DNA from: Escherichia phage vB_EcoM_EP32a | Direction: 5' to 3' (one strand) | Sequence record: OR544954 | DNA: 64,000 nucleotides | Shown here: piece after piece, positions 6,595-62,623 of the stretch | Numbering within the stretch: position 1 is the first letter of the stretch | Layout: the number at the start of each line of letters is the position of its first letter | Program-made: the position numbers and the translations under genes | The notes under the pieces: model-generated | What the model saw: the letters and a program-made list of their open reading frames with translations, nothing else | Told to the model about the DNA's origin: nothing | Database searches by the model: none

Positions 6595-6607
6595 TTTTTA
6601 CAAAACA

Positions 6608-6637
6608 GTTTACATAAGGATGATGGTGTGTTACTAT
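6608..6637 (+). promoter_or_regulatory. early sigma70-type promoter (GTTTAC -35, TACTAT -10) within a palindrome
   Basis: GTTTAC at 6608-6613, -10 at 6632-6637, inverted repeat aggatgat...atcatcct around the -10. Confidence 0.5.
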
Positions 6638-6671
6638 CATCCTATCAAATAAACAGCCTCAAGGAAATAAA

Positions 6672-6959
6672 ATGAAAACCTATAAAGAATTTATATCACC
6701 TGTTGCTAACGTTTCTACTCTGACCGAAGCATCCCTTACTTCTGAAGTTATTAAAACAAATAAAGGACGTGAGGGTAAACCAATGATTAGTCTGGTTGAT
6801 GGTGAAGAAGTAAAAGGTACTGTTTACTTAGGGGATGGATGGTCTGCTAAGAAAGATGGCGCTACTATTGTTATCTCTCCGGCTGAAGAGACTGCACTGT
6901 TTAAAGCTAAGCATATTTCTGTAGCTCAGCTTAAAATTATTGCAAAAACTCTTCTGTAA
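6672..6959 (+). CDS. ipI: internal protein (ipI-like) with capsid targeting sequence
   Basis: N-terminal MKTYKEFI is the T4 CTS consensus; 95 aa, same as the T4 IPI precursor; T4 ipI position after 57B. Confidence 0.7.
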   Translation: MKTYKEFISPVANVSTLTEASLTSEVIKTNKGREGKPMISLVDGEEVKGTVYLGDGWSAKKDGATIVISPAEETALFKAKHISVAQLKIIAKTLL

Positions 6960-6963
6960 GTAG

Positions 6964-6992
6964 TTTACATGCTGATAGGACTATGTTATAGT
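6964..6992 (+). promoter_or_regulatory. early promoter cassette (GTTTAC ... TGTTATAGT) with palindrome around the -10
   Basis: GTTTAC 6964-6969, 17-nt spacer, TATAGT 6987-6992, flanked by ataggacta / tagtcctat. Confidence 0.55.
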
Positions 6993-7029
6993 AGTCCTAT
7001 CAAATCAAATGAGTAAATGGAGAAATAAA

Positions 7030-7215
7030 ATGAAACGCGCTGAACTGATTCGTAATGTTGCTGTAGTAATTGCTTCAATGGCTTTTAGTTTTTCGATGTT
7101 TGTAGGATTCATTTGTGGACTACTGACAACAACTGAAAACTCTATCTCATTGGTAGTAGCATTTCTAATCGGCTTAATCGCTATCGTTATGGATAAAATT
7201 GCAAAAGGTGAGTAA
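7030..7215 (+). CDS. small membrane protein
   Basis: ATG after GGAG SD; hydrophobic segments VAVVIASMAFSFSMFVGFICGLL and VVAFLIGLIAIV. Confidence 0.5.
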   Translation: MKRAELIRNVAVVIASMAFSFSMFVGFICGLLTTTENSISLVVAFLIGLIAIVMDKIAKGE

Positions 7216-7216
7216 A

Positions 7217-7579
7217 ATGAAATATCACGTATATGCTGATTTTGAAGCAAATCCTTCTAAAGACCCGGATTGTCGTTTGATACGTAATCCGTTTGATTCA
7301 GCAGCTCAAGCATGGACTTGGATTAAATCTAAATCGCCTGGTTATATGTTCTTTGAAGTAGTCGATGACAATGGTACACTGCATCCAGAACCTACAGAAA
7401 CTATTAATTTCCTTCTGTTTGCTGGTTATGACTGTTATCCTCTTGGTGGTATTGACGACCTTGTTGCTACAGGAAAAACTGTTGAGGCTCTTCGCGAAAT
7501 TTATAAAAACGCAGAAGAAAATTTTGACTGGTATCATATTGTCAGTGCACATACTTTTGAAGTGGTGGAACACTCATGA
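7217..7579 (+). CDS. hypothetical protein
   Basis: 120-aa ORF, ATG preceded by GGTGAG. Confidence 0.5.
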   Translation: MKYHVYADFEANPSKDPDCRLIRNPFDSAAQAWTWIKSKSPGYMFFEVVDDNGTLHPEPTETINFLLFAGYDCYPLGGIDDLVATGKTVEALREIYKNAEENFDWYHIVSAHTFEVVEHS

Positions 7580-7646
7580 TTCTTTACGCTAAAGTAAAAT
7601 CTGTCGAGAACGGATATGAAAGCGACTAGTCGATGACTATGGTATT

Positions 7647-7847
7647 TTGACTAATTTTGAAGTTGAAAAGGTTTATATCGACCGTTCATCTTCGCAAGTT
7701 AAATTACTCTGTGAAGATGATAAATTTAACACAGTGAACTTTGATTTCTTTATTGAAACAGAAAAAGGCCCTCTTGAATATGATATTTTCAAGAATCCTT
7801 TGAAATTACGTTGCATTGAATATAATTACATTAATATGGTACGGTGA
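7647..7847 (+). CDS. hypothetical protein (TTG start only)
   Basis: 66-codon ORF with no ATG; weak. Confidence 0.25.
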   Translation: MTNFEVEKVYIDRSSSQVKLLCEDDKFNTVNFDFFIETEKGPLEYDIFKNPLKLRCIEYNYINMVR

Positions 7848-7851
7848 TTAA

Positions 7852-8367
7852 ATGAATATTCGTTTAGGCAGTACAATTCCTAAGGGCTACGTAATTGATG
7901 TCACTACCTAGGAAAATGATGGTGACAACTATAAAACCAAAACATTGTTTGAAGTGGAAGAGCATGAGCTCCAACAGTTTAAATATCTCTTGAAGAAATT
8001 TAAGAGTCGTCATTCTAGCACTAAAGCCGAACGTTATTGTGGTAATACACCATTCAGTGATTGCTCGCTTTTAATCTATGAATACTTGGTTGAAGGGCTG
8101 TTCTCAGACCAGCTTTATCCAGAATTTATTAAAAAGGTCTTTGATATTGAAGTCGACCTCGGTAATAAATCTGAAGAAGACGAAGCGCGTGTATTTGACC
8201 TGTTCCATGAGAATGGATATTTAGTATCAGAAGGTCTCATTGATATTCTTGGCCATGCTTCTGAATACTATGATTACGATTTCTTGCGTGTAGTTGAACG
8301 TGTCGAATTTGCTTATATTGAAGAAGAAATCGTTTTGCCAACCGTTAAAATGGTTGATTTGCTTTAA
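7852..8367 (+). CDS. hypothetical protein, reading frame interrupted by in-frame TAG at 7909-7911
   Basis: ATG 7852 with GGTGA SD opens MNIRLGSTIPKGYVIDVTT, then TAG, then the same frame continues ENDGDNYKTKTLFEVEEHELQQ... to 8367. Confidence 0.4.
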
Positions 8368-8446: not shown

Positions 8447-8520
8447 GGCCCTGTAGCTCAATGGTTAGCAGCAGTCCCCTCATAAGGGAAAGGTTACCAG
8501 TTCGAATCTGGTCTGGGTCA
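8447..8520 (+). tRNA. tRNA with CAU anticodon (Met, or Ile-AUA if lysidine-modified)
   Basis: Manual cloverleaf fold: acceptor GGCCCTG/CTGGGTC, T-arm ACCAG-TTCGAAT-CTGGT, anticodon loop CTCATAA; D-stem imperfect. Confidence 0.7.
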
Positions 8521-8526: not shown

Positions 8527-8603
<77 letters not shown>

Positions 8604-9320: not shown

Positions 9321-9623
9321 ATGAGTCTTTACACTGAACTGAATAAAAAATCTGAAGAATCTGCTGAAACTATTTTTAAAAACGTGCAAAAGCGTATTTT
9401 AGAAAAGATGTATAACGCTGCAGCTAAAGGTGAAAAATCTTGCCGGTTTCCGATTAGGTGTTCTTCCGATTTATGCGCAAATACTATTGAATGGTTGGAA
9501 AGTGAAGGTCTTACGGTAGAGAAAAACCCGGCGACTTCTATTGGCAGTGAATCATATATTAGTATTTCTTGGGATAAATCAACAAAATTAAAAATAATGA
9601 TGTACAAGCACCAAGGATGGTGA
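9321..9623 (+). CDS. hypothetical protein
   Basis: ATG after GAGGAAAA; 100 aa. Confidence 0.5.
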   Translation: MSLYTELNKKSEESAETIFKNVQKRILEKMYNAAAKGEKSCRFPIRCSSDLCANTIEWLESEGLTVEKNPATSIGSESYISISWDKSTKLKIMMYKHQGW

Positions 9624-9659
9624 TACTATAGACTTATCAACTACAAAGGAGTAAACAAA

Positions 9660-9824
9660 ATGACTACTTTAATTATTTGGTTCGATGAAAATGAAGAAAC
9701 ATACTGTGTGAATATTGGTGAAAGTCCAATGCCTGAATTTGAATCCTCAGATAAAAACTCTGTTGTATCTTGGGCTGAAGGTTATAAAGCCGCTAAAGGT
9801 GACGTTGAAATAATTTACATCTAA
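9660..9824 (+). CDS. small hypothetical protein (54 aa)
   Basis: ATG after AAGGAG, downstream of a promoter-like TACTATAGAC element; below the ORF-track size cutoff. Confidence 0.4.
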   Translation: MTTLIIWFDENEETYCVNIGESPMPEFESSDKNSVVSWAEGYKAAKGDVEIIYI

Positions 9825-9870
9825 GTAAGTTTATGTTATAGTAATCACATCAAATAAAGAGGAAAACAAA

Positions 9871-10098
9871 ATGGCTAAAGTTAGTATTGATGTCGTTGAT
9901 TATGAATACACCGAAGAAGTTATTCGCAACCGACACCCTGAAGTTCGTATCGATTCAGTCCAAGATTCCAAGTTCTGGACAACTGAGCTTAATCTGAGTG
10001 GTCCTTATGAAGCTGTTAAGAAGTTCATGGTTGAAGAATACTGCGAAGGCATGCACCCTGAAGATGCAGAATTTTATGTCAACTTGATTAAAAAATAA
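9871..10098 (+). CDS. hypothetical protein
   Basis: 75-aa ORF after promoter cassette 9811-9845 and AGAGGAAAA SD. Confidence 0.5.
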   Translation: MAKVSIDVVDYEYTEEVIRNRHPEVRIDSVQDSKFWTTELNLSGPYEAVKKFMVEEYCEGMHPEDAEFYVNLIKK

Positions 10099-10168
10099 TT
10101 TACAAACTCTCGAGAGCAGAGTATAATGCTCTCGTTGGATAATAAACCACCAATTGAAAGGTAATAAT

Positions 10169-11414: not shown

Positions 11415-11778
11415 GCCCTGGGCGTATGAATACAAGCGTAAATTAATCCCAAATGAAGTACTATTTGGCCCTATTTTAGCTTTAGCATTTTTAATCTTTA
11501 TGATTATAGGAGCTGTTTTAGATTCTAGTGAAGTTATATCGTCTGATGCAGCATTTTCATTAATGTTCGTCGCACCACTTATTGTACCGTTTTTATTAAT
11601 GCCTATTAATTGGGTAGGATATTGGCACCAAGGCCGTCATCACAGAGCCCGATTAAGAGAATGGAAAGTTCAGTGCGCAAAAGCCCAAGCTCAGTATGAT
11701 GAAGCTGTTAAAAAGTATGAATATGAAGAAGCTATGGAATTCGTTAAGGAAATAAGATGCAAAAGCCTCAACTCTTAA
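11383..11778 (+). CDS. small membrane protein
   Basis: Hydrophobic segments ILALAFLIFMIIGAVL and MFVAPLIVPFLLMPI; start overlaps upstream ECRE motif. Confidence 0.5.
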   Translation: MSKPTLYMPSKPWAYEYKRKLIPNEVLFGPILALAFLIFMIIGAVLDSSEVISSDAAFSLMFVAPLIVPFLLMPINWVGYWHQGRHHRARLREWKVQCAKAQAQYDEAVKKYEYEEAMEFVKEIRCKSLNS

Positions 11779-12116
11779 CCGTATGGCCTTCTCTTGGTGA
11801 GAACATTCTAATTTTTATTATGAGTATTGGCATGGGATTTGCCTTTGGATTAGTTGGATTTCTTATTGACGGCGTTGTGTTAGGATTTATAGGGAACACT
11901 GGTGGATTCACAGACCAATGGCAGGACTTACGGTACACCCAAGCCTTTGCATCCATCGCATCATTTTGTACTGTAGTCTATTTTTACTACGATTTTATAA
12001 ACCACAACAAGAAAAATAAAAAGGTTTACGCTTCTCAAATGATTAGTTATAATGAACTCCTAGCTAGACGTGAAAATGAAACAATCGAAAACTTTATTAA
12101 GGAATGTAGAAAATGA
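11757..12116 (+). CDS. small membrane protein, C-terminal ENFIKECRK motif
   Basis: TM segments; conserved C-terminal motif. Confidence 0.5.
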   Translation: MQKPQLLTVWPSLGENILIFIMSIGMGFAFGLVGFLIDGVVLGFIGNTGGFTDQWQDLRYTQAFASIASFCTVVYFYYDFINHNKKNKKVYASQMISYNELLARRENETIENFIKECRK

Positions 12117-12907: not shown

Positions 12908-12913
12908 AACAGT

Positions 12914-12948
12914 TTACAACAAGATAGGGCTATGTTATAGTAGTCCTA
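12914..12948 (+). promoter_or_regulatory. early promoter cassette (GTTTAC ... TGTTATAGT) with palindrome
   Basis: agtttacaacaagatagggctatgttatagtagtcctatcaaaacaaatggag. Confidence 0.5.
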
Positions 12949-12969
12949 TCAAAACAAATGGAGTCCACA

Positions 12970-14194: not shown

Positions 14195-14274
14195 TTTCAC
14201 AAAACAGTTTACAAGGTCTGTAGTTGTTGATACTATAGACCTATCAAAACAAATGAGTGAATGGAGATATAAAA

Positions 14275-14475: not shown

Positions 14476-14533
14476 GTGTACAAACTGATAGGACTATGTT
14501 ATAGTAGTCCTATTAAAACATGAGGAGAATATT

Positions 14534-15932: not shown

Positions 15933-16165
15933 GTATAGCAATTTACATTAAATCAGAATCATGTGATAGTTATCTGTACACATACGATAAAGATGTGTCA
16001 GAAGAAAAAATCAAAGACGACCTTAATACGGATCTTGATATGTTCTGTCCTATTGCAGATTACAAACTTGCGGTCTCTAATAGTGAAAGTCCATCTAAAG
16101 AAACGCGCATTGAAGAATTTATGTCCGAATTAATGGCCAAATCATGGGACCGAGATGATGAGTAA
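15929..16165 (+). CDS. hypothetical protein
   Basis: ATGA-coupled 78-aa ORF. Confidence 0.45.
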   Translation: MSIAIYIKSESCDSYLYTYDKDVSEEKIKDDLNTDLDMFCPIADYKLAVSNSESPSKETRIEEFMSELMAKSWDRDDE

Positions 16166-17414: not shown

Positions 17415-17416
17415 TG

Positions 17417-17455
17417 TTTACTTCCTCCAAGGGTTTTGATACTATACATTCATCA
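17417..17455 (+). promoter_or_regulatory. early promoter cassette with palindrome
   Basis: GTTTACttcctccaagggttttgaTACTATacattcatcaactacttggagg; inverted repeat cctccaag/cttggagg. Confidence 0.45.
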
Positions 17456-17472
17456 ACTACTTGGAGGAAATT

Positions 17473-17886: not shown

Positions 17887-17893
17887 GGAAAAA

Positions 17894-18154
17894 ATGAAAA
17901 TGTATCAAGAATTTATCATTGAAGCAGATGCCAAAGACCCTAAATTTAAAGTTAAAGCTTTCATTGGTGATGCGGAAGACTTTGGCTCATTAAAACGTAA
18001 TGGGTATTCTTTCTTAGGTGGTGATGGTAAAGAAATCAACACCTATGCAAAACGTAGTGAAATTGCTTATGTTGTAGTAAGTCCTAAAGTAGATGTTGAC
18101 GATATTGGATACGATTTTAACAACTTCGGAATTATTTCTGGCGGTAAAGCTTAA
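17894..18154 (+). CDS. internal protein-like with capsid targeting sequence
   Basis: Starts MKMYQEFIIEA (CTS-like); 86 aa. Confidence 0.55.
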   Translation: MKMYQEFIIEADAKDPKFKVKAFIGDAEDFGSLKRNGYSFLGGDGKEINTYAKRSEIAYVVVSPKVDVDDIGYDFNNFGIISGGKA

Positions 18155-18157: not shown

Positions 18158-18195
18158 GTTTACGCTTAAGTATTAATATGGTATAATTACTCTAT
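18158..18195 (+). promoter_or_regulatory. early promoter (GTTTAC -35, extended TGGTATAAT -10)
   Basis: ttGTTTACgcttaagtattaataTGGTATAATtactctatcaaaa. Confidence 0.55.
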
Positions 18196-18217
18196 CAAAA
18201 CAAACAAGGAAACAAAA

Positions 18218-19789: not shown

Positions 19790-19912
19790 AGACATCAAAG
19801 GCTACAAGCCGCATACCGATGATAAAATCAGTAAAGTGAACGCTATTAAAGATGCAGAAGTTCGTGTCGTGCAGTATTTCGACCTGAGGAAAAATACTAA
19901 TGGCTAGAGTAG

Positions 19913-19962
19913 TTTACTTCTCCTCTAGTTGTGTTACTATAGACCTGTCAACTAGAGGAGAA
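19913..19962 (+). promoter_or_regulatory. early promoter cassette with 12-bp inverted repeat
   Basis: GTTTACttctcctctagttgtgTTACTATagacctgtcaactagaggag; near-identical copy at 60757-60806. Confidence 0.5.
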
Positions 19963-19968
19963 ATCAAA

Positions 19969-20427
19969 ATGACTATCAATTCAGACGTTTTTATCCGTCG
20001 TAATAAACTCCGTCGAATCTTTGAAACGGAGTTCCGCAAAATAAATGCCGGTATAAAAGATGCTGCAAAGTCTCTTGGACTACCAGGCTTTCATATCAAG
20101 TATTCTCAACATCTCTTAGATCGTGCCATCCAGAGAGAAATAGATGAGAATTACGTTTTTGAATTATTTCATAAAGTAAAAAATCACGTTAAAGAAGTTG
20201 CAGAATTTTTATCAATGCCGGCACGTCCAGATGTTGATGAAGATTTTGTCGAAGGTGTCGAGTATCGTCCAGGCCGTTTAGAAATAACTGACGGAAATCT
20301 TTGGTTAGGACTTACAGTTTGTCGCGAAAATCCGACATTCAAAATGAAGACTCTTCAATGTAGAATGGCTATTATTAACAGTAAACGACTACCAGGAAAA
20401 GCTTCTAAAGCAGTGATTAAAATCTAG
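19969..20427 (+). CDS. regB: endoribonuclease RegB
   Basis: MTINSDVFIRRNKLRR...KYSQHLLDRAIQREIDE...GRLEITDGNLWLG...LQCRMAIINSKRLPGKASKAVIK; 152 aa (T4 RegB 153 aa). Confidence 0.8.
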   Translation: MTINSDVFIRRNKLRRIFETEFRKINAGIKDAAKSLGLPGFHIKYSQHLLDRAIQREIDENYVFELFHKVKNHVKEVAEFLSMPARPDVDEDFVEGVEYRPGRLEITDGNLWLGLTVCRENPTFKMKTLQCRMAIINSKRLPGKASKAVIKI

Positions 20428-23519: not shown

Positions 23520-23525
23520 TTTACT

Positions 23526-23553
23526 AGCCCCTTCCTTATGGTTGGGGCTTTTT
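23526..23553 (+). terminator. rho-independent terminator
   Basis: AGCCCCttccttatggttGGGGCT followed by TTTTT. Confidence 0.65.
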
Positions 23554-23620
23554 GGCATTTAGCAGTTTACTTTTCCTCAGGTTGTGTTATAGTAGTCCTT
23601 ACTTACTAGAGGAGAACATT

Positions 23621-23807: not shown

Positions 23808-24014
23808 ATGCTTTACGATTATACTGGAAAATCTGAAGACGGTGTACTTGAGCTTTTATCTGAAAGCGCTGAAGATGACGATACGGTGGTGATGTTTTGT
23901 AAAAATGGTCCTGGGGATAAGGGATGGATTTATCTTCGCCAAGAAAATGACCTAATTGTTTTGGACCCTAAACAAGTTGAAGAACTTTATCAACATTTAA
24001 AACACAATCGGTAG
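23808..24014 (+). CDS. hypothetical protein
   Basis: 68-aa ORF after GTGAGGA. Confidence 0.4.
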   Translation: MLYDYTGKSEDGVLELLSESAEDDDTVVMFCKNGPGDKGWIYLRQENDLIVLDPKQVEELYQHLKHNR

Positions 24015-24178
24015 TTTACGTCTTGGTAGGACTATGATATAGTAATCCTACCAAAACAAATGGAGAACAAAATGAAACTTTTGCTTATCGCTTATGTTGT
24101 AGTACAATATAATTATCCGATGTTTACTTATAACATGGTAAACGGCATAGTGAATCTTATTGAAACGAGTATGGTAAA

Positions 24179-26676: not shown

Positions 26677-26697
26677 TGGGGACCTTCGGGTCCCTTT
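26677..26697 (+). terminator. terminator-like UUCG hairpin
   Basis: GGGGACCttcgGGTCCC followed by TTT. Confidence 0.45.
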
Positions 26698-26791
26698 AGG
26701 GGGTTAAAATATTTTTAAAAAGTAGTGTACATGCTTTTAGGATATGTTATTATAGACCTATCGAAACGAAATGAGTAAATTGGAGAATAAA

Positions 26792-27772: not shown

Positions 27773-27909
27773 GCTTATAGGAAGTTCTTAGGTAACAAAA
27801 GCCATAAAGATGAATAATCATATGGCTTACCTCAAAGAAGGACACCAGGAACCTACTGAGGGCATAGAAATATTTAAAATAACGATGTACAAATCAAAGA
27901 GGATATGTT

Positions 27910-28197
27910 ATGGATTTTATGCAAAAAATTAAAGCCGCAGTCGAACTGTATGCTCATCGTATGGTTAGTTCTACGATGCAATATAGTGAGGAGGTTCGCC
28001 ATGACTCTTCCTTGAAAGGAAAAACTAAAGCCTTAATTACCTTAGATCGTTTGCAAAAGAATGCCATAGAGATGCTCCAGTACGACAAGGGTGTATATAA
28101 GAAAGAACAGGAAGAGAAACTTAAATCTGAAAAATTACAAAAAATCCCGAAGTCTGTTTGGTTCAGTGGAAAAAATACCGAAAAAAGTTTCTTTTAG
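27910..28197 (+). CDS. hypothetical protein
   Basis: 95-aa ORF. Confidence 0.4.
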   Translation: MDFMQKIKAAVELYAHRMVSSTMQYSEEVRHDSSLKGKTKALITLDRLQKNAIEMLQYDKGVYKKEQEEKLKSEKLQKIPKSVWFSGKNTEKSFF

Positions 28198-28255
28198 TTG
28201 TTTACAAGGTCTATGGTTATGTTATTATAGACCTATCAACTACTGGAGGTAAAAC

Positions 28256-28783
28256 ATGAACGCTAAAGATATTTTCAACCTGGTAAATTATAACGACGGT
28301 AAATTTAAATCTGAAGCACAAAGCAAGTTCTTTAATGACGTTGCTTATGGTAACGAGATTACCGTGGACGGAGGTCAGATTTTCAAATCTCGCTGGAATT
28401 GGATTGTTATCATCGATTCAGTTGGAATTGTGGAAGTCTACAAAAACACTAACAAAAAACGTACATTATTCTGGTCTCGTGAAACTAACGAGCAGTACAA
28501 AAAGGATAAAGCATCTCGTTTATCCAAAGTAACCCAGGAAGATATCGACTTCATCAAGAAAGATATCGAGATGTACGAAAATTTAATTGCTGAAGACCAG
28601 GCAGTACTCGATAAGTTTGATGAAATTAAAGCTTCTCGTGAAATCCCTGACTTCATGAAAGAAACAGTAAACGAACGATACGCTCTCACTTCAGAACGTA
28701 TTGCAAACTATACAAAACAGAAAGCAGAACGTATTAGTACTCTTCGGAAATTTGAAGAACGTTTAAAGACGGTTCACGCATAA
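28256..28783 (+). CDS. hypothetical protein
   Basis: 175-aa ORF after promoter cassette 28199-28250. Confidence 0.5.
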   Translation: MNAKDIFNLVNYNDGKFKSEAQSKFFNDVAYGNEITVDGGQIFKSRWNWIVIIDSVGIVEVYKNTNKKRTLFWSRETNEQYKKDKASRLSKVTQEDIDFIKKDIEMYENLIAEDQAVLDKFDEIKASREIPDFMKETVNERYALTSERIANYTKQKAERISTLRKFEERLKTVHA

Positions 28784-28845
28784 ACGCTTTACCCAAGGAC
28801 GGGTTATAATGGTTTTGAGTTCCAATTCAATCTGAGGAAATAGTT

Positions 28846-29841
28846 ATGAGCATTACATCTGATGCGGTAAAACATGAAATTAACGGTTTATGTGCTTCAC
28901 AGATTAAAGTGTGGTTTAAAGACCATAATGATCGCAGAGCACTTAATTATGAACGAATTGCTATCCAAGTTCATCAATTACTGGTTAGTAAATTTGATTT
29001 TCATATGCCGTCTGAAATCTATACTAATCTACCTCGAGCGCTTATTAAAGCGTGTAAAGGCTACGGAAAATCAATGGCTGATGGAATCTTCAGCGCGCTG
29101 AATAAACTTAACGTTCTGTCGATGATTAACTCTAACAACATCCTGCGTAATCTAGGACGTACTGATTTGTTCGGTCGTGAACAGTGTAAAATGCCTTTGA
29201 AATGGATTGTTGCTCATCTTAACGAGAACCAAACACGTTTTATGGCCGTAACAGCACGTTTACAAATGGGCCTAGATCGTCAGATGAACTTTAAAACTCA
29301 TCCACGTTATTCAGGTTCAACTGACTTTTATAAATGCGAGCTTCAAAAGGTTGCAGGCAAAACTGTCTTAGTAGTTCGTGTAACGTTTGAAGGACGACGT
29401 CAAGGATATTTTGACCTAATTGGCTCTGGTCTCAAACATTGTGGATTTATCGACGAAGTTGATATCAAGCGAGACGGCACTGGATACCGTATTGGATATG
29501 TTTGCACTCTTAAAGAAGAGATTTCGGGACCAGCACCAGGACTAAAAGACGTTAGATATAAAGACGAGCTAGTTGAAGAAATAAAAGAAGTTGAATATGA
29601 TATCAACCAAGAAGATGCTCTTAAAGACCTTATTGACGAACTAAACCAAGACGTTATTCCGGTTCAGAAATTTGAATCAAAACATGCTGAGCAAATCAAA
29701 TACTTTGAAGCTTTGATTAACGAACTTAATGTAACTATTCAGCAGACTGACGATGAAATCTCACGATTAGCAGGCTTAAATGGTAAAAATAAAACAGAAC
29801 GAGCTAATCTTATTCAAGTAGTAAAACTTCTTAAGGAATGA
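28846..29841 (+). CDS. hypothetical protein with C-terminal coiled coil (family member 1 of 3)
   Basis: 331 aa; globular N-terminal part plus helical C-terminus. Confidence 0.5.
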   Translation: MSITSDAVKHEINGLCASQIKVWFKDHNDRRALNYERIAIQVHQLLVSKFDFHMPSEIYTNLPRALIKACKGYGKSMADGIFSALNKLNVLSMINSNNILRNLGRTDLFGREQCKMPLKWIVAHLNENQTRFMAVTARLQMGLDRQMNFKTHPRYSGSTDFYKCELQKVAGKTVLVVRVTFEGRRQGYFDLIGSGLKHCGFIDEVDIKRDGTGYRIGYVCTLKEEISGPAPGLKDVRYKDELVEEIKEVEYDINQEDALKDLIDELNQDVIPVQKFESKHAEQIKYFEALINELNVTIQQTDDEISRLAGLNGKNKTERANLIQVVKLLKE

Positions 29842-29896
29842 TGTACAACCAAGGATGGTTGGAGTATAATAAATTTTTCAACATGAGGAATATAAA

Positions 29897-30727: not shown

Positions 30728-30789
30728 ATCAGTTTACAACCAAGGATGGTTGGAGTATAATGAATCTATCTTAACGAGAGGAAAATATT

Positions 30790-33091: not shown

Positions 33092-33219
33092 ACCATGGTA
33101 TTCGGCTCGATGGGAGACAGTCGAGCCAGACGTCGAAACAGTTTACAATGACGAAGAAACGTGTTATGATGAACCTTCAATAAATGAATTAATTGATATG
33201 GAAATGGGAAGAGATTATT

Positions 33220-37641: not shown

Positions 37642-37700
37642 TCATAAAACAGTTTACATCCTCAATAGATGTGTTAAGATTAAACCATCTACTATAGAGG
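37642..37700 (+). promoter_or_regulatory. early promoter cassette
   Basis: caGTTTACatcctcaatagatgtgTTAAGATtaaaccatctactatagagg. Confidence 0.4.
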
Positions 37701-37708
37701 AAAATAAA

Positions 37709-38779: not shown

Positions 38780-38852
38780 TAATATACAACGATAGGAAGA
38801 CATGTTATTATCTTCCTATCGTCTTAAAATGAGGAAAATATCATGGCCCAAG

Positions 38853-38912
38853 AATTAGATTTTATTACAAACTCTTGAGAGCAGAGTATAATGCTCTCTC
38901 ATTGGATAATAA
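38853..38912 (+). promoter_or_regulatory. early promoter cassette with inverted repeat around GAGTATAAT (near-duplicate of 10088-10150)
   Basis: attacaaactcttgagagcaGAGTATAATgctctctcattggataataaa versus 10091 atttacaaactctcgagagcaGAGTATAATgctctcgttggataataaa. Confidence 0.5.
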
Positions 38913-38931
38913 AATAACCGAGGAAAATAAT

Positions 38932-39763: not shown

Positions 39764-39802
39764 CTTTAAGATAGGTCTCTAAATATTATGATATAATAGA
39801 CC
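39764..39802 (+). promoter_or_regulatory. promoter upstream of gene 55 (MotA-box-like TGCTTTAAG plus -10) with palindrome
   Basis: tgctttaagaTAGGTCTctaaatattatgatataatAGACCTA. Confidence 0.4.
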
Positions 39803-39826
39803 TATGAATTGAGCTAAGAGGTACTT

Positions 39827-42875: not shown

Positions 42876-44392
42876 AATCATTTAAATTAAATCGTGTTCG
42901 TTATCAAAACATCATGTCGGTAGGTGGGAATCCTATTGATATCCAATTAGATAAAGTCCAAAAGACATTAATCACTGGTAAAAATGGCGGTGGTAAATCT
43001 ACGATGTTAGAAGCCATTACTTTCGGACTTTTCGGTAAACCATTTCGTGATGTTAAGAAAGGACAAATCATTAACAGCACGAATAAGAAAGAGCTCTTAG
43101 TTGAGCTTTGGATGGAATTCGATGGTAAAAAATACTTCATTAAACGTGGCCAAAAGCCCAATATTTTCGAAATCTCCGTTGACGGTGTTCGTCTTGATGA
43201 ATCTGCCAGCAGTCGCGACTTCCAAGAAGAATTTGAACGTAGCATCGGAATGTCATACGCGTCTTTTAAACAAATCGTTGTGCTTGGGACGGCAGGGTAT
43301 ACCCCTTTCATGGCTCTTAGCACCCCTGCTCGTAGAAAACTTGTCGAAGACCTTTTAGAAGTCGGCACACTCGCTGAAATGGATAAAATCAATAAGTCTC
43401 AAGTTCGAGAACTTAATTCCCAGGGACAAGTTCTCGATGCCAAGAAAGATGGTATTATCCAACAAATTAAGATTTATAACGAGAATATCGAACGTCAAAA
43501 GAAATTATCTGGTGATAATGTAGCGCGTCTACAGAATATGTATGACGACCTAGCCAAAGAAGCTCGTTCATTAAAAGCAGAAATCGAAGAAGCTAATGAG
43601 CGACTACTTAATATCGTTCTTGACGAAGACCCTACTGAGGCATTCAACAAGATAGGACAAGAAGCATTCTTGATTAAATCTAAAATTGACTCATATAACA
43701 AAGTTATTAAGATGTATCATGATGGCGGTACATGTCCTACTTGTGCATCACAGTTGCACCAGGGTGATCCTATTGTCTCTAAGATTACCGATAAGCTTCA
43801 CGAATGTAATCACTCATTCGAGCAACTTACATGTCACAGAGATAATCTGAGTGTCCTAGTGGACGAATATAGAGCTAATGTTAAGACTAAACAGGACCTT
43901 GCATCTGATATTCGCACCAAGAAACAAGCAATGATTGCCACTATTGATAAAGCTAAGAAAGTTAAAGCTGCAATAGAGCAAGCCTCAGCAGAATTTATCG
44001 ACCATGCCGATGAGATAGCTTTGCTTCAAAAAGAACTTGATAAAATCATTAAAACAAAATCAGATATCGTTCTTGAAAAATACCATCGTGGTATTATCAC
44101 AGATATGTTAAAAGATTCTGGTATTAAAGGTGCTATCATTAAAAAATATGTGCCTCTGTTCAACAAGCAGATTAACCATTATCTTAAAATCATGGAAGCT
44201 GATTACGTGTTTTCTATTGATGAAGAATTCAATGAATCTATAAAATCACGTGGTCGTGAAGATTTTAGTTATGCTTCATTTAGTCAAGGTGAAAAAGCGC
44301 GTATCGATATCGCATTGTTGTTTACATGGCGAGATATTGCTGAAAAGGTCTCTGGCGTTAGAATCAACAAACGTGTTCATTATTTGTCATAG
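42872..44392 (+). CDS. 46: recombination endonuclease subunit gp46 (Rad50/SbcC-like), frame broken near 44366-44372; the H-loop segment continues in another frame to 44471
   Basis: Walker A GKNGGGKST, coiled coil, signature FSQGEKARIDIAL; after ...VSGVRIN the frame stops (KRVHYLS*), while the shifted frame reads TNVFIICHRDHDPQAYGQHLQMSKVGRFTVMTVS; no Walker B/D-loop between signature and H-loop. Confidence 0.85.
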   Translation: MKSFKLNRVRYQNIMSVGGNPIDIQLDKVQKTLITGKNGGGKSTMLEAITFGLFGKPFRDVKKGQIINSTNKKELLVELWMEFDGKKYFIKRGQKPNIFEISVDGVRLDESASSRDFQEEFERSIGMSYASFKQIVVLGTAGYTPFMALSTPARRKLVEDLLEVGTLAEMDKINKSQVRELNSQGQVLDAKKDGIIQQIKIYNENIERQKKLSGDNVARLQNMYDDLAKEARSLKAEIEEANERLLNIVLDEDPTEAFNKIGQEAFLIKSKIDSYNKVIKMYHDGGTCPTCASQLHQGDPIVSKITDKLHECNHSFEQLTCHRDNLSVLVDEYRANVKTKQDLASDIRTKKQAMIATIDKAKKVKAAIEQASAEFIDHADEIALLQKELDKIIKTKSDIVLEKYHRGIITDMLKDSGIKGAIIKKYVPLFNKQINHYLKIMEADYVFSIDEEFNESIKSRGREDFSYASFSQGEKARIDIALLFTWRDIAEKVSGVRINKRVHYLS

Positions 44393-44475
44393 AGACCATG
44401 ACCCACAAGCTTATGGACAACATCTTCAAATGAGCAAAGTTGGACGATTTACTGTAATGACTGTTTCATAAACGC

Positions 44476-44510
44476 TTTAACACGATGTGGTTATAATGAC
44501 CACATCAAAT
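44476..44510 (+). promoter_or_regulatory. promoter-like palindrome with TATAAT
   Basis: cgATGTGGTtataatgACCACATcaaattaaatggag. Confidence 0.35.
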
Positions 44511-44525
44511 TAAATGGAGAACAAC

Positions 44526-47852: not shown

Positions 47853-47866
47853 GGGACTTCGGTCCC
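47853..47866 (+). terminator. UUCG hairpin (terminator or RNA stability element)
   Basis: GGGACttcgGTCCC; weak T-run (attt). Confidence 0.35.
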
Positions 47867-47899: not shown

Positions 47900-47927
47900 A
47901 GACAATAACTCGTCTAAAGGAAATTAA
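47900..47927 (+). promoter_or_regulatory. gene 43 translational operator (hairpin with 8-nt loop AAUAACUC next to the SD)
   Basis: AGAC-aataactc-GTCT followed by aAAGGAaattaaATG; matches the T4 gp43 autoregulatory operator as I recall it. Confidence 0.5.
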
Positions 47928-60294: not shown

Positions 60295-60313
60295 AGGAGA
60301 CTTCGGTCTCCTT
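60295..60313 (+). terminator. UUCG hairpin terminator after gene 41
   Basis: GGAGACttcgGTCTCC followed by TTTCGGGG. Confidence 0.5.
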
Positions 60314-60377
60314 TCGGGGTTTACATCTTCCTCTAGGCATGATATGATGTACTTACACCAACCAAGAGGAAAACATT

Positions 60378-60752
60378 ATGAATATGTCTCAAGCAATTTT
60401 TACTGCAATCACCGAAAACACAACTGTTGAAGTAGTTTCTCCACTGGCAACCTACGTTATTCTTGCTCCTAAAACTATTGTATCTCGTATGGAAAACATG
60501 GGCAAACGTATCGTACAAATTGTTGGAGCCGGAAATCAAAAACTTGATTATCTGCGAACCATCAAAGCTTATGAACATTTCCAACTCGAAAAAGGTTCTC
60601 CTATCCAGGTAGAACTTGTAAATGGTGATATCGTTCGAGCAATGTTCCATCATTTCTATGCATTGAATGACCCATCTAAAGCGGTTCGTTTAATTGCATA
60701 CGACGCAAACCAAAACGAAATCAACGCAGATATATCTAAATTACGTTTTTAA
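60378..60752 (+). CDS. hypothetical protein
   Basis: 124-aa ORF after AGAGGAAAACATT. Confidence 0.5.
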   Translation: MNMSQAIFTAITENTTVEVVSPLATYVILAPKTIVSRMENMGKRIVQIVGAGNQKLDYLRTIKAYEHFQLEKGSPIQVELVNGDIVRAMFHHFYALNDPSKAVRLIAYDANQNEINADISKLRF

Positions 60753-60756
60753 GTTT

Positions 60757-60806
60757 ACTTCTCCAGTAGTTGTGTTATTATAGACCTATCAACTACTGGA
60801 GAACAA
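60757..60806 (+). promoter_or_regulatory. early promoter cassette (near-duplicate of 19913-19962)
   Basis: GTTTACttctccagtagttgtgTTATTATagacctatcaactactggag. Confidence 0.5.
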
Positions 60807-60807
60807 A

Positions 60808-61125
60808 ATGAAAACCATCGATTGTAAAGCAGAATTTAAGATTTTTTATCACGGTTCAAGTAGTTCAGCTAACATCGAAAACATGCTTTGTCCTCCTGAG
60901 GAAACAGGAGTTCTGTCTGAAACTGGGCGTAAGAAAAACTTGGATCGTGTATTCTTTACCGAAGATATCGGTTTAGCAAAGATTTATGCAGGACGAGCAG
61001 CACGCTCTTATGGAGGTGAACCACGTCTCTATCGAGTAATTTCTCCGGTAGATGTAGTTCAAATGAATGATACTAAAGGCGCTACAGTTTATCACGCTGA
61101 ATGGGCATTTTGCGAGGAAATATGA
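60808..61125 (+). CDS. hypothetical protein, possible Arr-like ADP-ribosyltransferase fold
   Basis: FYHGSSS, RVFFTEDIGLAKIYAGRA, EPRLYRVISP resemble Arr motifs (FYHGT, IYFS...AVWGA, YIYIVEP) by eye; 105 aa. Confidence 0.5.
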   Translation: MKTIDCKAEFKIFYHGSSSSANIENMLCPPEETGVLSETGRKKNLDRVFFTEDIGLAKIYAGRAARSYGGEPRLYRVISPVDVVQMNDTKGATVYHAEWAFCEEI

Positions 61126-61313
61126 GCAAATTAACTAAAGTTACTTTTATTGGTTGGTTTAAAAGCGGTGAGATGTTCACTAAAGATATCATGTTATCAG
61201 GCGACCGTGAAGAAATCGAGTGGGTTGCGGTACAACTTGCTGAAGTGAACAAAGCATTAGTTAAAGCATTTGTTAATGACGAGAAAGTTTTTGAAGCTGA
61301 TTTCAGAGGATAA
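61122..61313 (+). CDS. small hypothetical protein
   Basis: 63-aa ATGA-coupled ORF. Confidence 0.4.
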   Translation: MSKLTKVTFIGWFKSGEMFTKDIMLSGDREEIEWVAVQLAEVNKALVKAFVNDEKVFEADFRG

Positions 61314-61314
61314 T

Positions 61315-61527
61315 ATGTATTCAACTGTGTTTAAACCATCAACATACGAATTTGCATCAACTACACAATGGAAAGCTCTTATTCTGGAAGGATGGGAACT
61401 AATGATGGACTGTGAAGCATCTGAAAAGTTTCCACACGGCAAAGTGGACTTCGTTAAATTTGCTGTACGTCCGACTAAACGACAGATTCGTCAAGAAAAA
61501 CGCAAATTTCGAAAAAGTTTAAAATAG
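61315..61527 (+). CDS. small basic protein with C-terminal VRPTKRQIRQEKRKFRK
   Basis: Shares the xVRPTKRQ[IL]R motif with ORF 33220-33390. Confidence 0.4.
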   Translation: MYSTVFKPSTYEFASTTQWKALILEGWELMMDCEASEKFPHGKVDFVKFAVRPTKRQIRQEKRKFRKSLK

Positions 61528-61587
61528 CTGTTTACAAGCACCACATACTGTGTTACTATCTTTCTATCAACTACAGAGGAAATTGAA

Positions 61588-61956
61588 ATGAAAAAATTAA
61601 TCGCTTTAGCAATGGTATTTGGATTAACCGGATGTGGTGCCCATGGCTTTATTCCTAATAACGTTGGCCAACTGATTTACAATCCGAATGTTAAACAGTA
61701 CAACCAACCTAAAGTTGAAGTGGAAGACCCGGTTACTGTAGGTAATCGAATGATTCAAGCCGATGCTCATGCTCAACGTTATCGTGATTCCGATACTGTA
61801 GCTATGTCAAAAGAACAGCGCGTTAAAGAACATTGCTTACAGGCTACTGAAATCGCATTCATTCGCTATGTTGAAACAACTGGTAAAGAGCCTACCCAGA
61901 AACAAATCGCGAATAACTATGTCCAGTGTATTGAACGTTTAAACAAATTTAATTAA
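61588..61956 (+). CDS. lipoprotein
   Basis: Signal peptide with lipobox MKKLIALAMVFGLTGC. Confidence 0.6.
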   Translation: MKKLIALAMVFGLTGCGAHGFIPNNVGQLIYNPNVKQYNQPKVEVEDPVTVGNRMIQADAHAQRYRDSDTVAMSKEQRVKEHCLQATEIAFIRYVETTGKEPTQKQIANNYVQCIERLNKFN

Positions 61957-62017
61957 TTGGTTTACACCAAAGTTAAAATAAGATACTATAAACATAACAA
62001 ATCAAGAGGAAATTAAC

Positions 62018-62266
62018 ATGGAATTATTCGTAGCTAGTTCAGTAGCAGTTTTAATCGCAGGTATTGGTTCAATCATCATTTACATGTTGCCTTGGGTAAT
62101 CGCACTTATTCGTGGCACAAAAAGCACAACAGCAATCTTCTTTGTATCTTTACTCTTTAACTGGACGATGGTTGGTTGGATTGGAACTTTAATTTGGTCT
62201 ATCGTTGCCGAAAAGAAATCGGCTCAGCAGCCTCAACAAGTAATTATTATTCGCGAAAAAGAATAA
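62018..62266 (+). CDS. small two-TM membrane protein
   Basis: Two hydrophobic segments; 82 aa. Confidence 0.5.
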   Translation: MELFVASSVAVLIAGIGSIIIYMLPWVIALIRGTKSTTAIFFVSLLFNWTMVGWIGTLIWSIVAEKKSAQQPQQVIIIREKE

Positions 62267-62329
62267 ACTTGTTTACATTATAGATGGACTATAGTATAGT
62301 AGTCCTATCAAATCAACTAAGGAGTTAAA

Positions 62330-62623
62330 ATGAAAAAGTTATCATTAGCAGCAATCTTACTTGCAGTATCATGTGCACCGGCTCCAGTTACGGCAGGTTA
62401 TGATAAAGACCTCTGTGAGTGGTCAATGACTGCAAATCAAGAAGATGTTGAACAACAAATCTTCTCTGATATCATGAACATCACTAAACGAGACCGTCCT
62501 AATATGGTTAATAAAGTTGTTCAACAACTTAAATCTGGCGGTATCATGCAGTACAATTATGTTTTGTATTGTGACCCTAATTTCGATAACAAAGATATCG
62601 TAACCGAAATCACAGGTGAATAA
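62330..62623 (+). CDS. sp: spackle periplasmic protein (superinfection exclusion / lysozyme inhibitor)
   Basis: Signal peptide MKKLSLAAILLAVSCAPA; GYDKDLCEWSMTANQ...SGGIMQYNYVLYCDPNFDNKDIVTEITGE matches T4 Sp as I recall it; 97 aa. Confidence 0.8.
   Translation: MKKLSLAAILLAVSCAPAPVTAGYDKDLCEWSMTANQEDVEQQIFSDIMNITKRDRPNMVNKVVQQLKSGGIMQYNYVLYCDPNFDNKDIVTEITGE

Follow-up and report, generated by a model that had tools for sequence, protein, structure and literature searches.

The palindromic repeats scattered through the 64,000-nucleotide stretch of Escherichia phage vB_EcoM_EP32a analyzed here (record OR544954; the window) are probably the early promoter cassettes of an RB69-like T-even phage. 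In one group of them (class B), a hairpin would hide the Shine-Dalgarno (SD) sequence on read-through RNA, and the cassettes would also act as occasional crossover points. Sequence comparison and taxonomy put Mosigvirus genomes at 96-98% identity to the window, which, as judged from its sequence, is an RB69-like (Mosigvirus) T-even phage with the + strand carrying the early genes.

The exact pattern GTTTAC-N16-18-TATAAT occurs five times in the window, always on the + strand (expected 0.01), and a matrix of two blocks, built by iterative training on the sites, returns 28 + strand matches of the GTTTAC-N17/18-(TGn)TAnnnT type at a score cut-off of at least 12. At that cut-off there are no matches on the - strand of the window and none in shuffles or Markov controls; the matrix scores are circular for the training sites, but the strand asymmetry and the exact-pattern count are not. 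Twenty-four of the 28 matches are intergenic, in keeping with the claim of the first-pass annotation that more than twenty intergenic sites share a promoter layout, and in these the end of the -10 is mostly 26-30 nt, and otherwise 34-41 nt, from the ATG. Four extra sites picked by eye (28781, 38863, 39768 and 44468), three of them with a MotA-box GCTTTA instead of a -35, bring the total to 32. The 25 nt that precede the -35 have an AT content of 72% (window, 63%). All 28 matrix matches are confined to variable regions; the replication-gene core (39.9-60.3 kb) has none, and the variable regions flanking it contain 6.9 and 13.5 cassettes per 10 kb. Of the strings quoted in the first-pass annotation, ATAGGACTATGTTATAGTAGTCCTAT is found at 6975 and 14488, and TATCAAAACAAATGGAG at 12947.

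Each cassette, of about 60 nt, would combine an AT-rich stretch, GTTTAC as the -35, a spacer of 17/18 nt, a TGn-extended -10 and CC at -3/-2. Transcription would begin at the A of CCTATCAA, with about 20 nt of leader ahead of a GGAG-type SD sequence and the ATG. These are predicted promoters for host sigma-70 RNA polymerase, each presumably at the head of one small, variable-region early gene; the predicted start sites, like the read-through discussed below, are assumed from what is known of T4.

Table 1. Cassettes, doubtful matches and separate terminator-like hairpins in the window
Feature	Position	Strand	Stem (class; arms)	Remarks
ipI cassette, early promoter	6608..6671	+	A; 6617-6627 / 6633-6643	
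trna.4 cassette	6963..7029	+	A; 6973-6984 / 6991-7002	long leader variant with AAATGAGTAAATGGAG
cassette 5' of 54-aa ORF (RB69ORF145c-like)	9600..9659	+	no qualifying stem	-35 ATGTAC
cassette 5' of frd.3-like ORF	9813..9870	+	no stem	ATTTAC; spacer contains stop codon of upstream gene
e.6 cassette	10098..10168	+	A; 10111-10118 / 10127-10134	arms CGAGAGCA / TGCTCTCG flank TATAAT; repeat partner 38863
doubtful intragenic match in ORF 11757-12116	12024..12053	+		exact-pattern / matrix search
cassette 5' of 79-aa ORF (PHROG 3723)	12912..12969	+	A; 12923-12933 / 12940-12950	
cassette 5' of 66-aa ORF	14207..14274	+	A; 14214-14224 / 14232-14242	
cassette 5' of 101-aa ORF	14476..14533	+	A; 14486-14497 / 14504-14515	GTGTAC
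doubtful intragenic match	15941..15970	+		matrix
denV cassette	17416..17472	+	B; 17422-17431 / 17460-17469	arms TTCCTCCAAG / CTTGGAGGAA; SD paired with spacer
cassette 5' of internal-protein-like ORF (ATG 18217)	18158..18216	+	no stem	ORF truncated by window-specific deletion, 18246/18247
regB cassette	19912..19968	+	B; 19918-19931 / 19949-19962	14 bp, GGAG included
terminator-like hairpin with T-run, 5' of mobD.2a cassette	23525-23553			
mobD.2a cassette	23565..23620	+	weak B; 23571-23578 / 23609-23616	
cassette 5' of 36-aa ORF and tk.1	24014..24071	+	A; 24023-24031 / 24046-24054	SD matches RegB strong-site consensus
terminator-like hairpin, 5' of nrdC.10 cassette	26678-26694			
nrdC.10 cassette	26725..26791	+	bulged stem only	GTGTAC
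doubtful weak match overlapping nrdC.9 start	27885..27914	+		matrix
nrdC.8 cassette	28200..28255	+	A; 28207-28217 / 28224-28234	
nrdC.6 middle-type promoter	28781..28845	+	no stem	MotA-box-like CGCTTTA, TATAAT
nrdC.5 cassette	29841..29896	+	small hairpin within spacer, AACCAAGGATGGTT	ATGTAC; repeat partner 30732
nrdC.3 cassette	30732..30789	+	spacer hairpin as in nrdC.5 cassette	
doubtful intragenic match	33141..33170	+		matrix
terminator-like hairpin, 5' of 55.6-like ORF cassette	37543-37557			
cassette 5' of 55.6-like ORF	37652..37708	+	interrupted stem, extends to SD	
cassette (ATATAC)	38782..38842	+	A; 38789-38800 / 38811-38822	12 bp; window-specific deletion cuts ORF after 7 codons
55.2 cassette	38863..38931	+	A; 38877-38883 / 38892-38898	-35 rebuilt at deletion junction 38865/38866, peculiar to window
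gene 55 promoter region	39768..39826	+	class A-like; 39771-39778 / 39798-39805	TGCTTTA MotA-box-like upstream
45.2 middle-type promoter	44468..44525	+	A; 44484-44493 / 44497-44506	CGCTTTA, TATAAT
terminator-like hairpin, 5' of 60319 cassette	60296-60311			
cassette 5' of 124-aa ORF, after gp41 helicase gene	60319..60377	+	B; 60328-60334 / 60365-60371	
cassette 5' of 105-aa ORF	60753..60807	+	B; 60759-60772 / 60790-60803	14 bp
cassette 5' of 122-aa ORF	61530..61587	+	no stem	
cassette 5' of imm-like ORF	61960..62017	+	no stem	
cassette 5' of spackle-like ORF	62271..62329	+	A; 62286-62292 / 62299-62305	

Under a strict rule (an ungapped stem of at least 7 bp), 17 of the 32 sites have an inverted repeat whose 5' arm lies within the spacer. 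Twelve of these have arms on either side of the -10 (class A), and in the other five, namely denV, regB, 60753, 60319 and 23565, the spacer pairs with the SD sequence (class B). The sites had been described as lying inside an inverted repeat, which is true of these 17 and not of the remainder, a few of which have bulged or weak stems below the rule; the spacer is complementary to sequence 3' of the -10 in about half of the cassettes. Of the 28 usable cassettes, 11 lack a qualifying stem; the promoter can therefore do without the hairpin.

Duplexes between spacers and downstream sequence have a mean energy of -10.8 kcal/mol, compared with -5.07 ± 0.40 for shuffled spacers and -7.0 for cross-pairings, and the observed value is reached by 0 of 5000 permutations. 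Across 113 distinct cassettes, the class A register gives 66.4% paired cells (shuffles, 61.0 ± 0.8; slid controls, 35-52%). For class B, the covariance-model alignment has 89.1% of cells paired (shuffles, 69.6 ± 1.1; slid, 40-57%) and changes on both sides in 12 of 14 pairs, this alignment (A4) being fitted to structure and including a few antisense rows. At regB, the segment from the SD sequence to the AUG pairs with a segment 5' of the predicted +1 in all 10 distinct upstream regions, and compensatory changes preserve the pairing (duplex energy, own -21.1 versus cross -14.6; 0/5000). At denV, such pairing is present in 27 of 32 distinct upstream regions of T4-like phages (own -14.4 versus cross -9.6; 0/5000), and the cassette at 60753..60807 differs from that of regB by two adjacent compensatory pairs. 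Orthologues of the trna.4 cassette keep the stem with different arm sequences, and those of e.6 in other genera have a class A stem, but a different one. Internal mismatches are more often G.T than A.C (23 versus 10; p = 0.035, a weak bias among related sequences), an excess that points to the + strand as the one that would fold. The nrdC.8 junction is class A in the window and class B in T4-like and other relatives; this could reflect equivalence of the two classes or a superficial classification.

Because the predicted start is 3' of the 5' arm, RNA from a cassette's own promoter should be unable to fold the hairpin, whereas read-through RNA could. If such RNA folds in vivo as predicted, the class B hairpin would bury the SD sequence, and the gene would be translated mainly from own-promoter transcripts, or only where the stem has been opened by a ribosome completing the upstream gene. 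For the SD-to-AUG segment, the predicted probability of being unpaired is 0.46 in read-through RNA versus 0.58 in own-promoter RNA (Wilcoxon p = 0.0007), with the biggest fall at class B sites. Class A hairpins cause no consistent shift in predicted SD accessibility, so one mechanism does not account for both classes; sitting directly 5' of the leader, they could have roles in attenuation, processing or RNA-end stabilization.

A somewhat unlikely alternative is that the hairpins serve translational coupling, not silencing: on reaching the stop codon of the preceding gene, a ribosome would unfold the 5' arm and expose the SD sequence, and translation of read-through RNA would depend wholly on that of the preceding gene. 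The stop codons of the preceding genes are 0-13 nt 5' of the -35 or overlap it, class B 5' arms start 0-2 nt past the -35, where a terminating ribosome could reach them, and SD sequestration and covariation support coupling and ribosome-site hiding alike. No sequence feature separates coupling from plain silencing. However, the SD sequence is not part of class A stems, and several cassettes come after a terminator or a long gap and so would receive no ribosome from upstream.

It is unlikely that the hairpins are terminators or attenuators that halt RNA polymerases entering from upstream, insulating each unit of cassette and gene, although this is the function first proposed for promoter-early-stem-loop (PeSL) elements. 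The RB49 stem-loop PeSL211/210 is reported to have cut lacZ expression as strongly as rrnB T1 (Arbiol 2010, PMC2839356), and the hairpins in the window are intergenic and come straight after the upstream stop codon. However, no embedded hairpin is followed by a T-run (at most four scattered T in the following 10 nt), and without a U-tract they are not classical terminators. Their stems are AT-rich, class B loops span 17-30 nt, and a terminator scan of 6-26 kb returned 17 sites, none coinciding with a cassette hairpin. Genuine GC-rich hairpins with T-runs stand apart, 5' of four cassettes (Table 1), and the phage thus uses ordinary terminators where needed. Termination would also leave unexplained the specific pairing of class B arms with GGAG and their covariation with it. 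Concealment of the ribosome site on read-through RNA fits the hairpins better than termination does.

Action of the palindromes in DNA, as operators for dimeric proteins or as cruciform-prone sites, through which early promoters would be modulated or turned off, is improbable. Class A arms do bracket the -10, nearly the same palindrome, ATAGGACTA...TAGTCCTAT, is common to five window sites, and how T4 early promoters are shut off is "not completely understood" (PMC3014915). However, pairing is kept while arm sequences vary among sites and genera, the symmetry centre shifts by 7 nt relative to the -10, class B arms are 17-30 nt apart and include the SD sequence, the G.T excess is unexpected for duplex DNA, and 11 cassettes have no stem. 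More improbable still is that the inverted repeats are functionless by-products of paralogous-cassette copying or template-switch repair of quasi-palindromes: the cassettes are clearly paralogues between which sequence is exchanged, and adjacent double changes (19912 versus 60753) could come from one template-switch event, but pairing is kept at orthologous sites across several genera (32 variants at denV, 10 at regB) and own partners exceed cross partners in 5000/5000 permutations.

Near-identical cassette copies had also been reported far apart. The pairs are real, but shorter and less alike than proposed, with 68-77% identity over the intervals originally given, which were slightly out of register. 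Positions 10100-10133 and 38865-38898 are 97% identical over 34 nt, 29844-29879 and 30735-30770 are 92% identical over 36 nt, and about 60 nt can be aligned between 19911-19972 and 60752-60811; the genes downstream of these pairs are not paralogues. Cassettes were also looked for at homologous junctions in five relatives, where they are kept at 19-22 of 20-23 alignable sites. The suggestion that they are recombination substrates finds support in three of 14 natural indels among these relatives, which are bounded at either end by a cassette copy, the shorter genome having a single cassette or a hybrid one. The other 11 are not cassette-to-cassette, nor are any of the window-specific deletions, and with about one-third of junctions carrying a cassette, three of 14 is not far above chance, junction sequence overlap aside. 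A gene-sized indel, missing in ST2 and RB69, has its left edge at the cassette at 14207..14274 and its right edge at 14476..14533, and two copies of the trna.4 cassette bracket an extra gene in O157 typing phage 3. As dispersed repeats of 35-75 nt, the cassettes could be occasional crossover points at which single genes are added or removed.

Early promoter layouts have been described for T4 (Hinton 2010, PMC2988021) and, as predictions with C at -3 to -1, for RB69 (Nolan 2006, PMC1524935). The window sites share this T4-type or RB69 layout, with AT-rich upstream sequence, GTTTAC, a TGn-extended -10 and C at -3/-2, and the ipI, trna.4, e.6, denV, regB and mobD.2 junctions are shared with T4 early promoters. 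T4 has the same design with other arm sequences, class A at ipI (orthologous to the class A cassette of the window), trna.4, e.7 and mobD.2, and class B at denV and regB. PeSLs consist of an AT-rich stretch, a sigma-70-like promoter, an overlapping or adjacent stem-loop, an SD sequence and a start codon (PMC2839356, PMC4122927), and are located in hyperplastic regions (Arbiol 2010, PMC2839356; Comeau 2014, PMC4122927). The window cassettes fall within this descriptive definition, and the likeness to T4-type PeSL cassettes noted in the first-pass annotation extends to layout, stem-loop position and hyperplastic location. On sequence grounds, then, the cassettes are a known kind of element, of the PeSL type.

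The pattern GTTTAC-N16-18-TATAAT occurs five times in the window, always on the + strand, against 0.01 matches expected. A two-block weight matrix trained on the sites recovers 28 sites, every one on the + strand, and gives no match in controls; such scoring is circular for its own training sites, which is not true of the strand bias or the exact-pattern count. A looser pattern gives 20 sites on the + strand and 5 on the - strand, with 5.6 in Markov controls. A generic sigma-70 scan of 6-26 kb shows no enrichment (76 vs 68.7 +/- 8.7), the enrichment being limited to the phage-specific pattern. Intergenic spacers hold 24 of the 28 matrix matches, and in 24 the -10 is followed at 26-41 nt by an ATG with GGAG or GAGG in front of it. 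The first-pass annotation had read more than twenty intergenic sites of this layout from the sequence; these are confirmed, and the strings it quoted are present in the window.

The cassettes, ~60-nt early promoter units named here by start coordinate, have a consistent anatomy. Their boxes are sigma-70-like, the spacing (TTTACN to -10) is 17 in nearly all of the 28, and the distance from the end of the -10 to the ATG is mostly 26-30 nt, otherwise 34-41 nt. Across 113 distinct cassettes, drawn from the window and its relatives, the consensus reads GTTTACA-N-TA-G-T-TG-TAT-AT-TCCTATCAAAT. Numbering that sets the final T of the -10 at -7 places CC at -3/-2, in agreement with the RB69 logo of Nolan et al., in which C is preferred at -3 to -1 (PMC1524935). 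The predicted +1 is the A of CCTATCAA, giving a leader of ~20 nt that would end in a GGAG-type Shine-Dalgarno sequence (SD); here, as for promoter activity and folding in vivo, we infer from sequence. The 25 nt 5' of the promoter are 72% AT and 43% A (window, 63% and 33%). Inspection of all spacers added four sites, in three of which a MotA-box-like GCTTTA replaces the -35. Two of these three middle-type promoters share with the early cassettes the type of stem that surrounds the -10.

Three cassettes have in common a longer leader, AAATGAGT(A/G)AAT(T)GGAG, and an additional ATG upstream of the gene's own; two of these extra codons share the reading frame of the gene's ATG and one does not. 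In all three the -10-to-ATG distance is 37-38 nt, compared with the usual 27-29. The RegB strong-site consensus GGAGRAYARAA has three exact matches in the window, all of them cassette SDs. It is not claimed as a cassette feature because matches with one mismatch are not enriched (14 vs 11.0 +/- 3.0).

Over long stretches the window is 96-98% identical to the Mosigvirus phages APCEc01, ST2, O157 typing phage 3, JK36 and RB69. Gene names follow the RB69 record and PHROGs, and the gene calls are rough ones made in this analysis. Baseplate genes lie on the - strand until ~3.1 kb. From there the + strand, which is the early-gene strand, carries 4, 2, 3, 1, 57A/B, ipI, the tRNA region, e.x, nudE and e, then denV, vs.x, regB, tk, rI, mobD.x, nrdC.x, pin, 49 and nrdD/G, then 55.x, 55, 47, 46, 45, 44, 62, regA, 43, uvsX and 41, and lastly small ORFs, imm-like and spackle-like genes among them. 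No cassettes occur in 39.9-60.3 kb (genes 55 to 41), and 28 occur in the flanking variable regions. An Rfam search of the window at the gathering score returned only two tRNAs and no family matching the cassettes.

After folding, an ungapped stem of at least 7 bp is present at 17 of 32 sites, and at more if bulges are allowed. The earlier statement that the promoters lie inside an inverted repeat thus applies to part of the set, since stems are absent or weak at the 11 remaining usable sites. Two classes can be distinguished. In class A (12 sites), an arm in the spacer pairs with the last -10 bases and the discriminator, as in TGATAGGACTAT / GTAGTCCTATCA, leaving the -10 in or beside the loop. 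In class B (five sites: denV, regB, 23565, 60319 and 60753), a ..CTCC.. at the start of the spacer pairs with the ..GGAG.. of the SD, with 17-30 nt between the arms. The duplex energy between each spacer and its own downstream part averages -10.8 kcal/mol, compared with -5.07 +/- 0.40 for shuffled spacers and -7.0 for the downstream parts of other sites; the observed average is reached in 0 of 5000 permutations. The complementarity of the spacer is not a by-product of base composition.

A fixed operator is rejected because the position of the symmetry centre relative to the -10 varies over 7 nt among the sites. Mismatches inside the stems are more often G.T than A.C (23 vs 10, p = 0.035, among related sequences), the direction expected if, as is probable, the + strand folds as RNA.

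Intrinsic (Rho-independent) terminators resemble the cassette hairpins in lying in an intergenic spacer 3' of a stop codon. They differ in that the embedded stems are AT-rich, the class B loops are large, and no cassette has a T-run after its hairpin; a terminator scan of 6-26 kb gave no match at any cassette hairpin. True terminator-like hairpins, GC-rich and with T-runs, do occur elsewhere in the window, separate from the cassettes, four of them just upstream of one. The embedded hairpins are accordingly rejected as intrinsic terminators, and their features do not favour termination or attenuation by the cassette stem-loops. Since the stems lack terminator features and a conserved subset pairs with the SD, the label "promoter-terminator" may be wrong for T-even phages.

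The position of the arms suggests a different role. Because the 5' arms are part of the spacer and precede the +1 predicted from sequence, a transcript initiated at the cassette's own promoter lacks one side of the hairpin and cannot form it; read-through RNA that started further upstream can. Early transcription units of T4 are known to run on through downstream genes (PMC2988021). The SD..AUG segment has a predicted unpaired probability of 0.58 in own-promoter RNA and of 0.46 in read-through RNA (p = 0.0007), the class B sites showing the largest drops, 0.16-0.35. In the longer transcript the SD and/or AUG is paired in class B, by folding and in denV and regB orthologues, and not in class A, whose hairpins have no consistent effect on predicted SD accessibility.

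It may be, then, that the early promoter is built into the 5' arm of a hairpin that acts as a filter on transcript origin. RNA from the proximal promoter alone would expose the ribosome site and the RegB target GGAG (at denV, regB and others), and in read-through RNA the ribosome site would stay buried. Class B would in this way tie translation to the proximal promoter, an early sigma-70 switch that would limit translation either to the proximal transcript or to the first minutes. RNA structure shields GGAG from RegB (PMC3014915), which bears on the self-control of regB. For class A, attenuation, processing or stabilisation of RNA ends are possible roles. A coupling variant is also conceivable: the upstream stop codon overlaps the -35 or lies 0-13 nt before it, and a ribosome halting at such a nearby stop could open the class B stem. 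That promoter-embedded hairpins serve T4-like phages generally as a filter on transcript origin rather than as terminators, maintained by compensatory change in several genera, is a tentative proposal that we place somewhat short of probable.

The first-pass annotation expected cassettes at the homologous junctions of related phages, and they are kept at 19-22 of 20-23 alignable sites in five Mosigvirus genomes. T4 has class A cassettes at ipI, trna.4, e.7 and mobD.2 and class B at denV and regB, with different arm sequences. The upstream regions of regB, denV, nrdC.8, trna.4 and e.6 were compared in IMG/VR contigs from several T4-like genera. Most of SD..AUG pairs with a segment 5' of the predicted +1 in all 10 distinct regB upstream sequences and in 27 of 32 for denV, where the 5' arm is either the spacer (class B) or the -10/discriminator. 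Own partners pair better than cross partners for both regB (-21.1 vs -14.6) and denV (-14.4 vs -9.6), in each case with 0 of 5000 permutations reaching the observed value. For nine regB upstream regions MAFFT misaligned the 3' arms, and RNAalifold therefore returned no structure; own-versus-cross duplex tests and a covariance-model alignment were used in its place.

The regB-hairpin covariance model recovers the class B cassettes of regB, denV and nrdC.8 orthologues. In the resulting alignment, which is fitted to the structure and includes a few antisense rows, 89.1% of cells are paired (shuffles 69.6 +/- 1.1; partners slid, 40-57%), with both-sided changes at 12 of 14 pairs. An ungapped alignment of 113 distinct cassettes with 18-nt spacers in the class A register is 66.4% paired (shuffles 61.0 +/- 0.8; slid, 35-52%). 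The sequences used for covariation are related to each other, and some are paralogues. At trna.4 and e.6 in other genera the class A stems are kept with unrelated arm sequences. At the nrdC.8 junction Mosigvirus has a class A hairpin, and T4-like and other relatives a class B one, with the same sequence downstream.

The cassettes had also been proposed as plausible substrates for shuffling and deletion, and near-identical copies had been noted far apart. The pairs in question are 34-60-nt repeats with cores 92-97% identical, but over the full intervals originally assigned to them identity is 68-77%. Pairwise comparison of the five relatives and the window yielded 14 natural indels. Cassette copies bound three of these at both ends, with junction overlaps of 7-77 nt. 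RB69 has an extra internal-protein (IP) gene, with an overlap of 55 nt, and O157 typing phage 3 has an extra gene, with 75-77 nt; the third event is a 66-aa gene absent from ST2 and RB69, where a hybrid cassette remains. Five further events have a cassette at one junction only and six have none. Crossover at cassettes is thus real, but they are not the dominant sites for it. The three cassette-bounded events give a numerical share of the local gene turnover explained by cassette repeats. Part of the remainder is explained by other repeats, found at some of the six cassette-free events, namely conserved IP-gene 5' ends and a 21-34-nt gene-end repeat at 32715. It was also considered whether duplicated cassettes mark paralogous genes; this is rejected, the downstream proteins being unrelated.

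The conserved 5' ends of three internal-protein-like genes form a second dispersed-repeat family (AAAATGAAAAC/TxTATxAAGAATTTAT, the capsid-targeting N-terminus). At one natural indel, a 625-nt segment that O157 typing phage 3 lacks, the junction overlap of 40 nt falls in such a 5' end and not in a promoter. The direct repeat of 21-34 nt (CTGCGAGAATATTTTAAATGA) marks the place where APCEc01 and JK36 have an extra 49.3-like gene of ~290 nt, absent from the window, ST2, O157 typing phage 3 and RB69, and is an example of gene gain or loss via a non-promoter repeat.

At seven points the window lacks 84-709 nt present in all five Mosigvirus relatives. These deletions are rejected as cassette-mediated, the junctions being clean, mostly intragenic and free of flanking repeats. 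A number of ORFs are disrupted, among them that of gp46 at its C-terminal end (506 aa in the window vs 562 aa), and one deletion rebuilds the -35 of cassette 38863. The 38865 junction is found in 0 of 161 phage records, and the 44367 junction is common only to vB_EcoP_EP32B (156.7 kb), a phage with numerous further clean deletions. The missing segments could reflect real deletions or faulty assembly of the source. Two hairpins precede the DNA polymerase gene, one with a UUCG loop and a short T-run and a smaller one with UAAC in its loop; the latter is similar to the translational operator of gp43 known from T4 and RB69.

Coordinates of features in the window
Feature	Position	Detail
Middle-type promoter	28781-28845	before nrdC.6; GCTTTA, no -35
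Middle-type promoter	39768-39826	before gene 55; GCTTTA (probable), no -35
Middle-type promoter	44468-44525	before 45.2; GCTTTA, no -35
Longer leaders	7007-7022, 14251-14266, 26769-26785	
Exact RegB consensus	24062, 26782, 60798	
tRNAs	8447-8520, 8527-8600	
Terminator-like hairpins	10771, 23525, 26678, 37543, 41302, 60296	
Two-ended event, RB69	6640-6694	internal-protein gene
Two-ended event, O157 typing phage 3	6961-7035	extra gene
Two-ended event, 66-aa gene	between 14207 and 14476	
IP-gene 5' ends	6669-6694, 17891-17916, 18215-18240	
Gene-end direct repeat	32692-32737	
Window-specific deletions	9309, 14943/14944, 18246/18247, 19865-19905, 30555/30556, 38865/38866, 44367-44369	
UUCG-loop hairpin	47853-47866	GGGACTTCGGTCCC
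Small hairpin	47900-47915	AGAC-AATAACTC-GTCT

The resemblance to promoter-early stem-loop cassettes (PeSLs) noticed at first reading is well founded. PeSLs were reported for RB49/phi1 (Arbiol et al. 2010, PMC2839356) and for PST/T4 and nt-1/KVP40 (Comeau et al. 2014, PMC4122927), and as judged from sequence the cassettes fit the description of PeSLs, and that of T4-type early promoters, at every point. PeSLs are further characterized by stem-loops that terminate or attenuate transcription and by mini-circles formed between neighbouring cassettes. The order is the same (AT-rich stretch, sigma-70-like -35/-10, promoter-overlapping stem-loop, SD, start codon), as is the PST/T4 consensus TTTACW-N17-TAYWAT; PST/T4 stems are of the AGNA-loop-TCNT kind, and a window example is AGGA...TCCT. 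Both cluster in hyperplastic regions and stand at some indel boundaries. The stems of RB49 PeSLs are G/C runs, unlike those of the window, which also lack a U-tract. A compact terminator-promoter overlap ~60 nt upstream of denV homologues in four IMG/VR jumbo-phage contigs of 346-378 kb (L045, L047, L051 and L053) is unlike the T-even design and nearer the RB49 type. In this element, GGGTTGAC-TTCG-GTCAGCCC-TTTTT-GC-TATAAT, a GC-rich terminator hairpin contains the -35 TTGAC and the T-run doubles as the spacer to the -10.

For RB69, 57 early promoters were predicted (Nolan et al. 2006, PMC1524935). Like these and the early promoters of T4 (Hinton 2010, PMC2988021), the cassettes have a UP-like AT-rich region, GTTTAC, TGn and a -10, and precede T4 early-gene orthologues and novel ORFs. 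Early promoters of the T4 type are used in the first minutes by host RNA polymerase that is unmodified or Alt-modified. Both papers describe the sites as promoters only, with no mention of an inverted repeat or stem-loop, and PeSLs in RB69-like phages are not listed in PMC2839356, PMC4122927 or PMC1524935. With RB69 promoters predicted in 2006 and PeSLs described in 2010 and 2014, the cassettes as found matter little beyond adding an RB69-like example. The polymorphism of T-even internal-protein genes (Repoila et al. 1994), as summarized in PMC4122927, concerns the IP locus only and comes with no mechanism; the extra IP genes of RB69 and O157 typing phage 3 are similar, and are flanked by repeats that combine the cassette with the conserved IP 5' end. 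The pairing of a subset with the SD is absent from the PeSL papers (PMC2839356, PMC4122927). No description of a transcript-origin filter was found in the T4 reviews consulted. The SD-pairing subset and its conservation, which go beyond the PeSL and RB69 promoter papers, are on this comparison rated possibly new rather than new.

The closest precedent for class B is found in T4 e, soc, 49 and I-TevI, where a hairpin buries the SD/AUG and its 5' strand is encoded upstream of the start of an internal promoter (PMC3014915, section 29). Long transcripts of these genes are silent and internal-promoter transcripts are translatable; the internal promoter is late (TATAAATA), and expression is delayed to late times (PMC3014915). 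The promoters of the window differ in being of the early sigma-70 type, as recognized from their sequence. It is this precedent, with an early promoter in place of the late one, that leads us to interpret class B as a link between translation and the proximal promoter. If this is correct, class B would mirror, among early genes, the late switch at e, soc, 49 and I-TevI, under a rule that links a gene's translation to the promoter from which its transcript originates.
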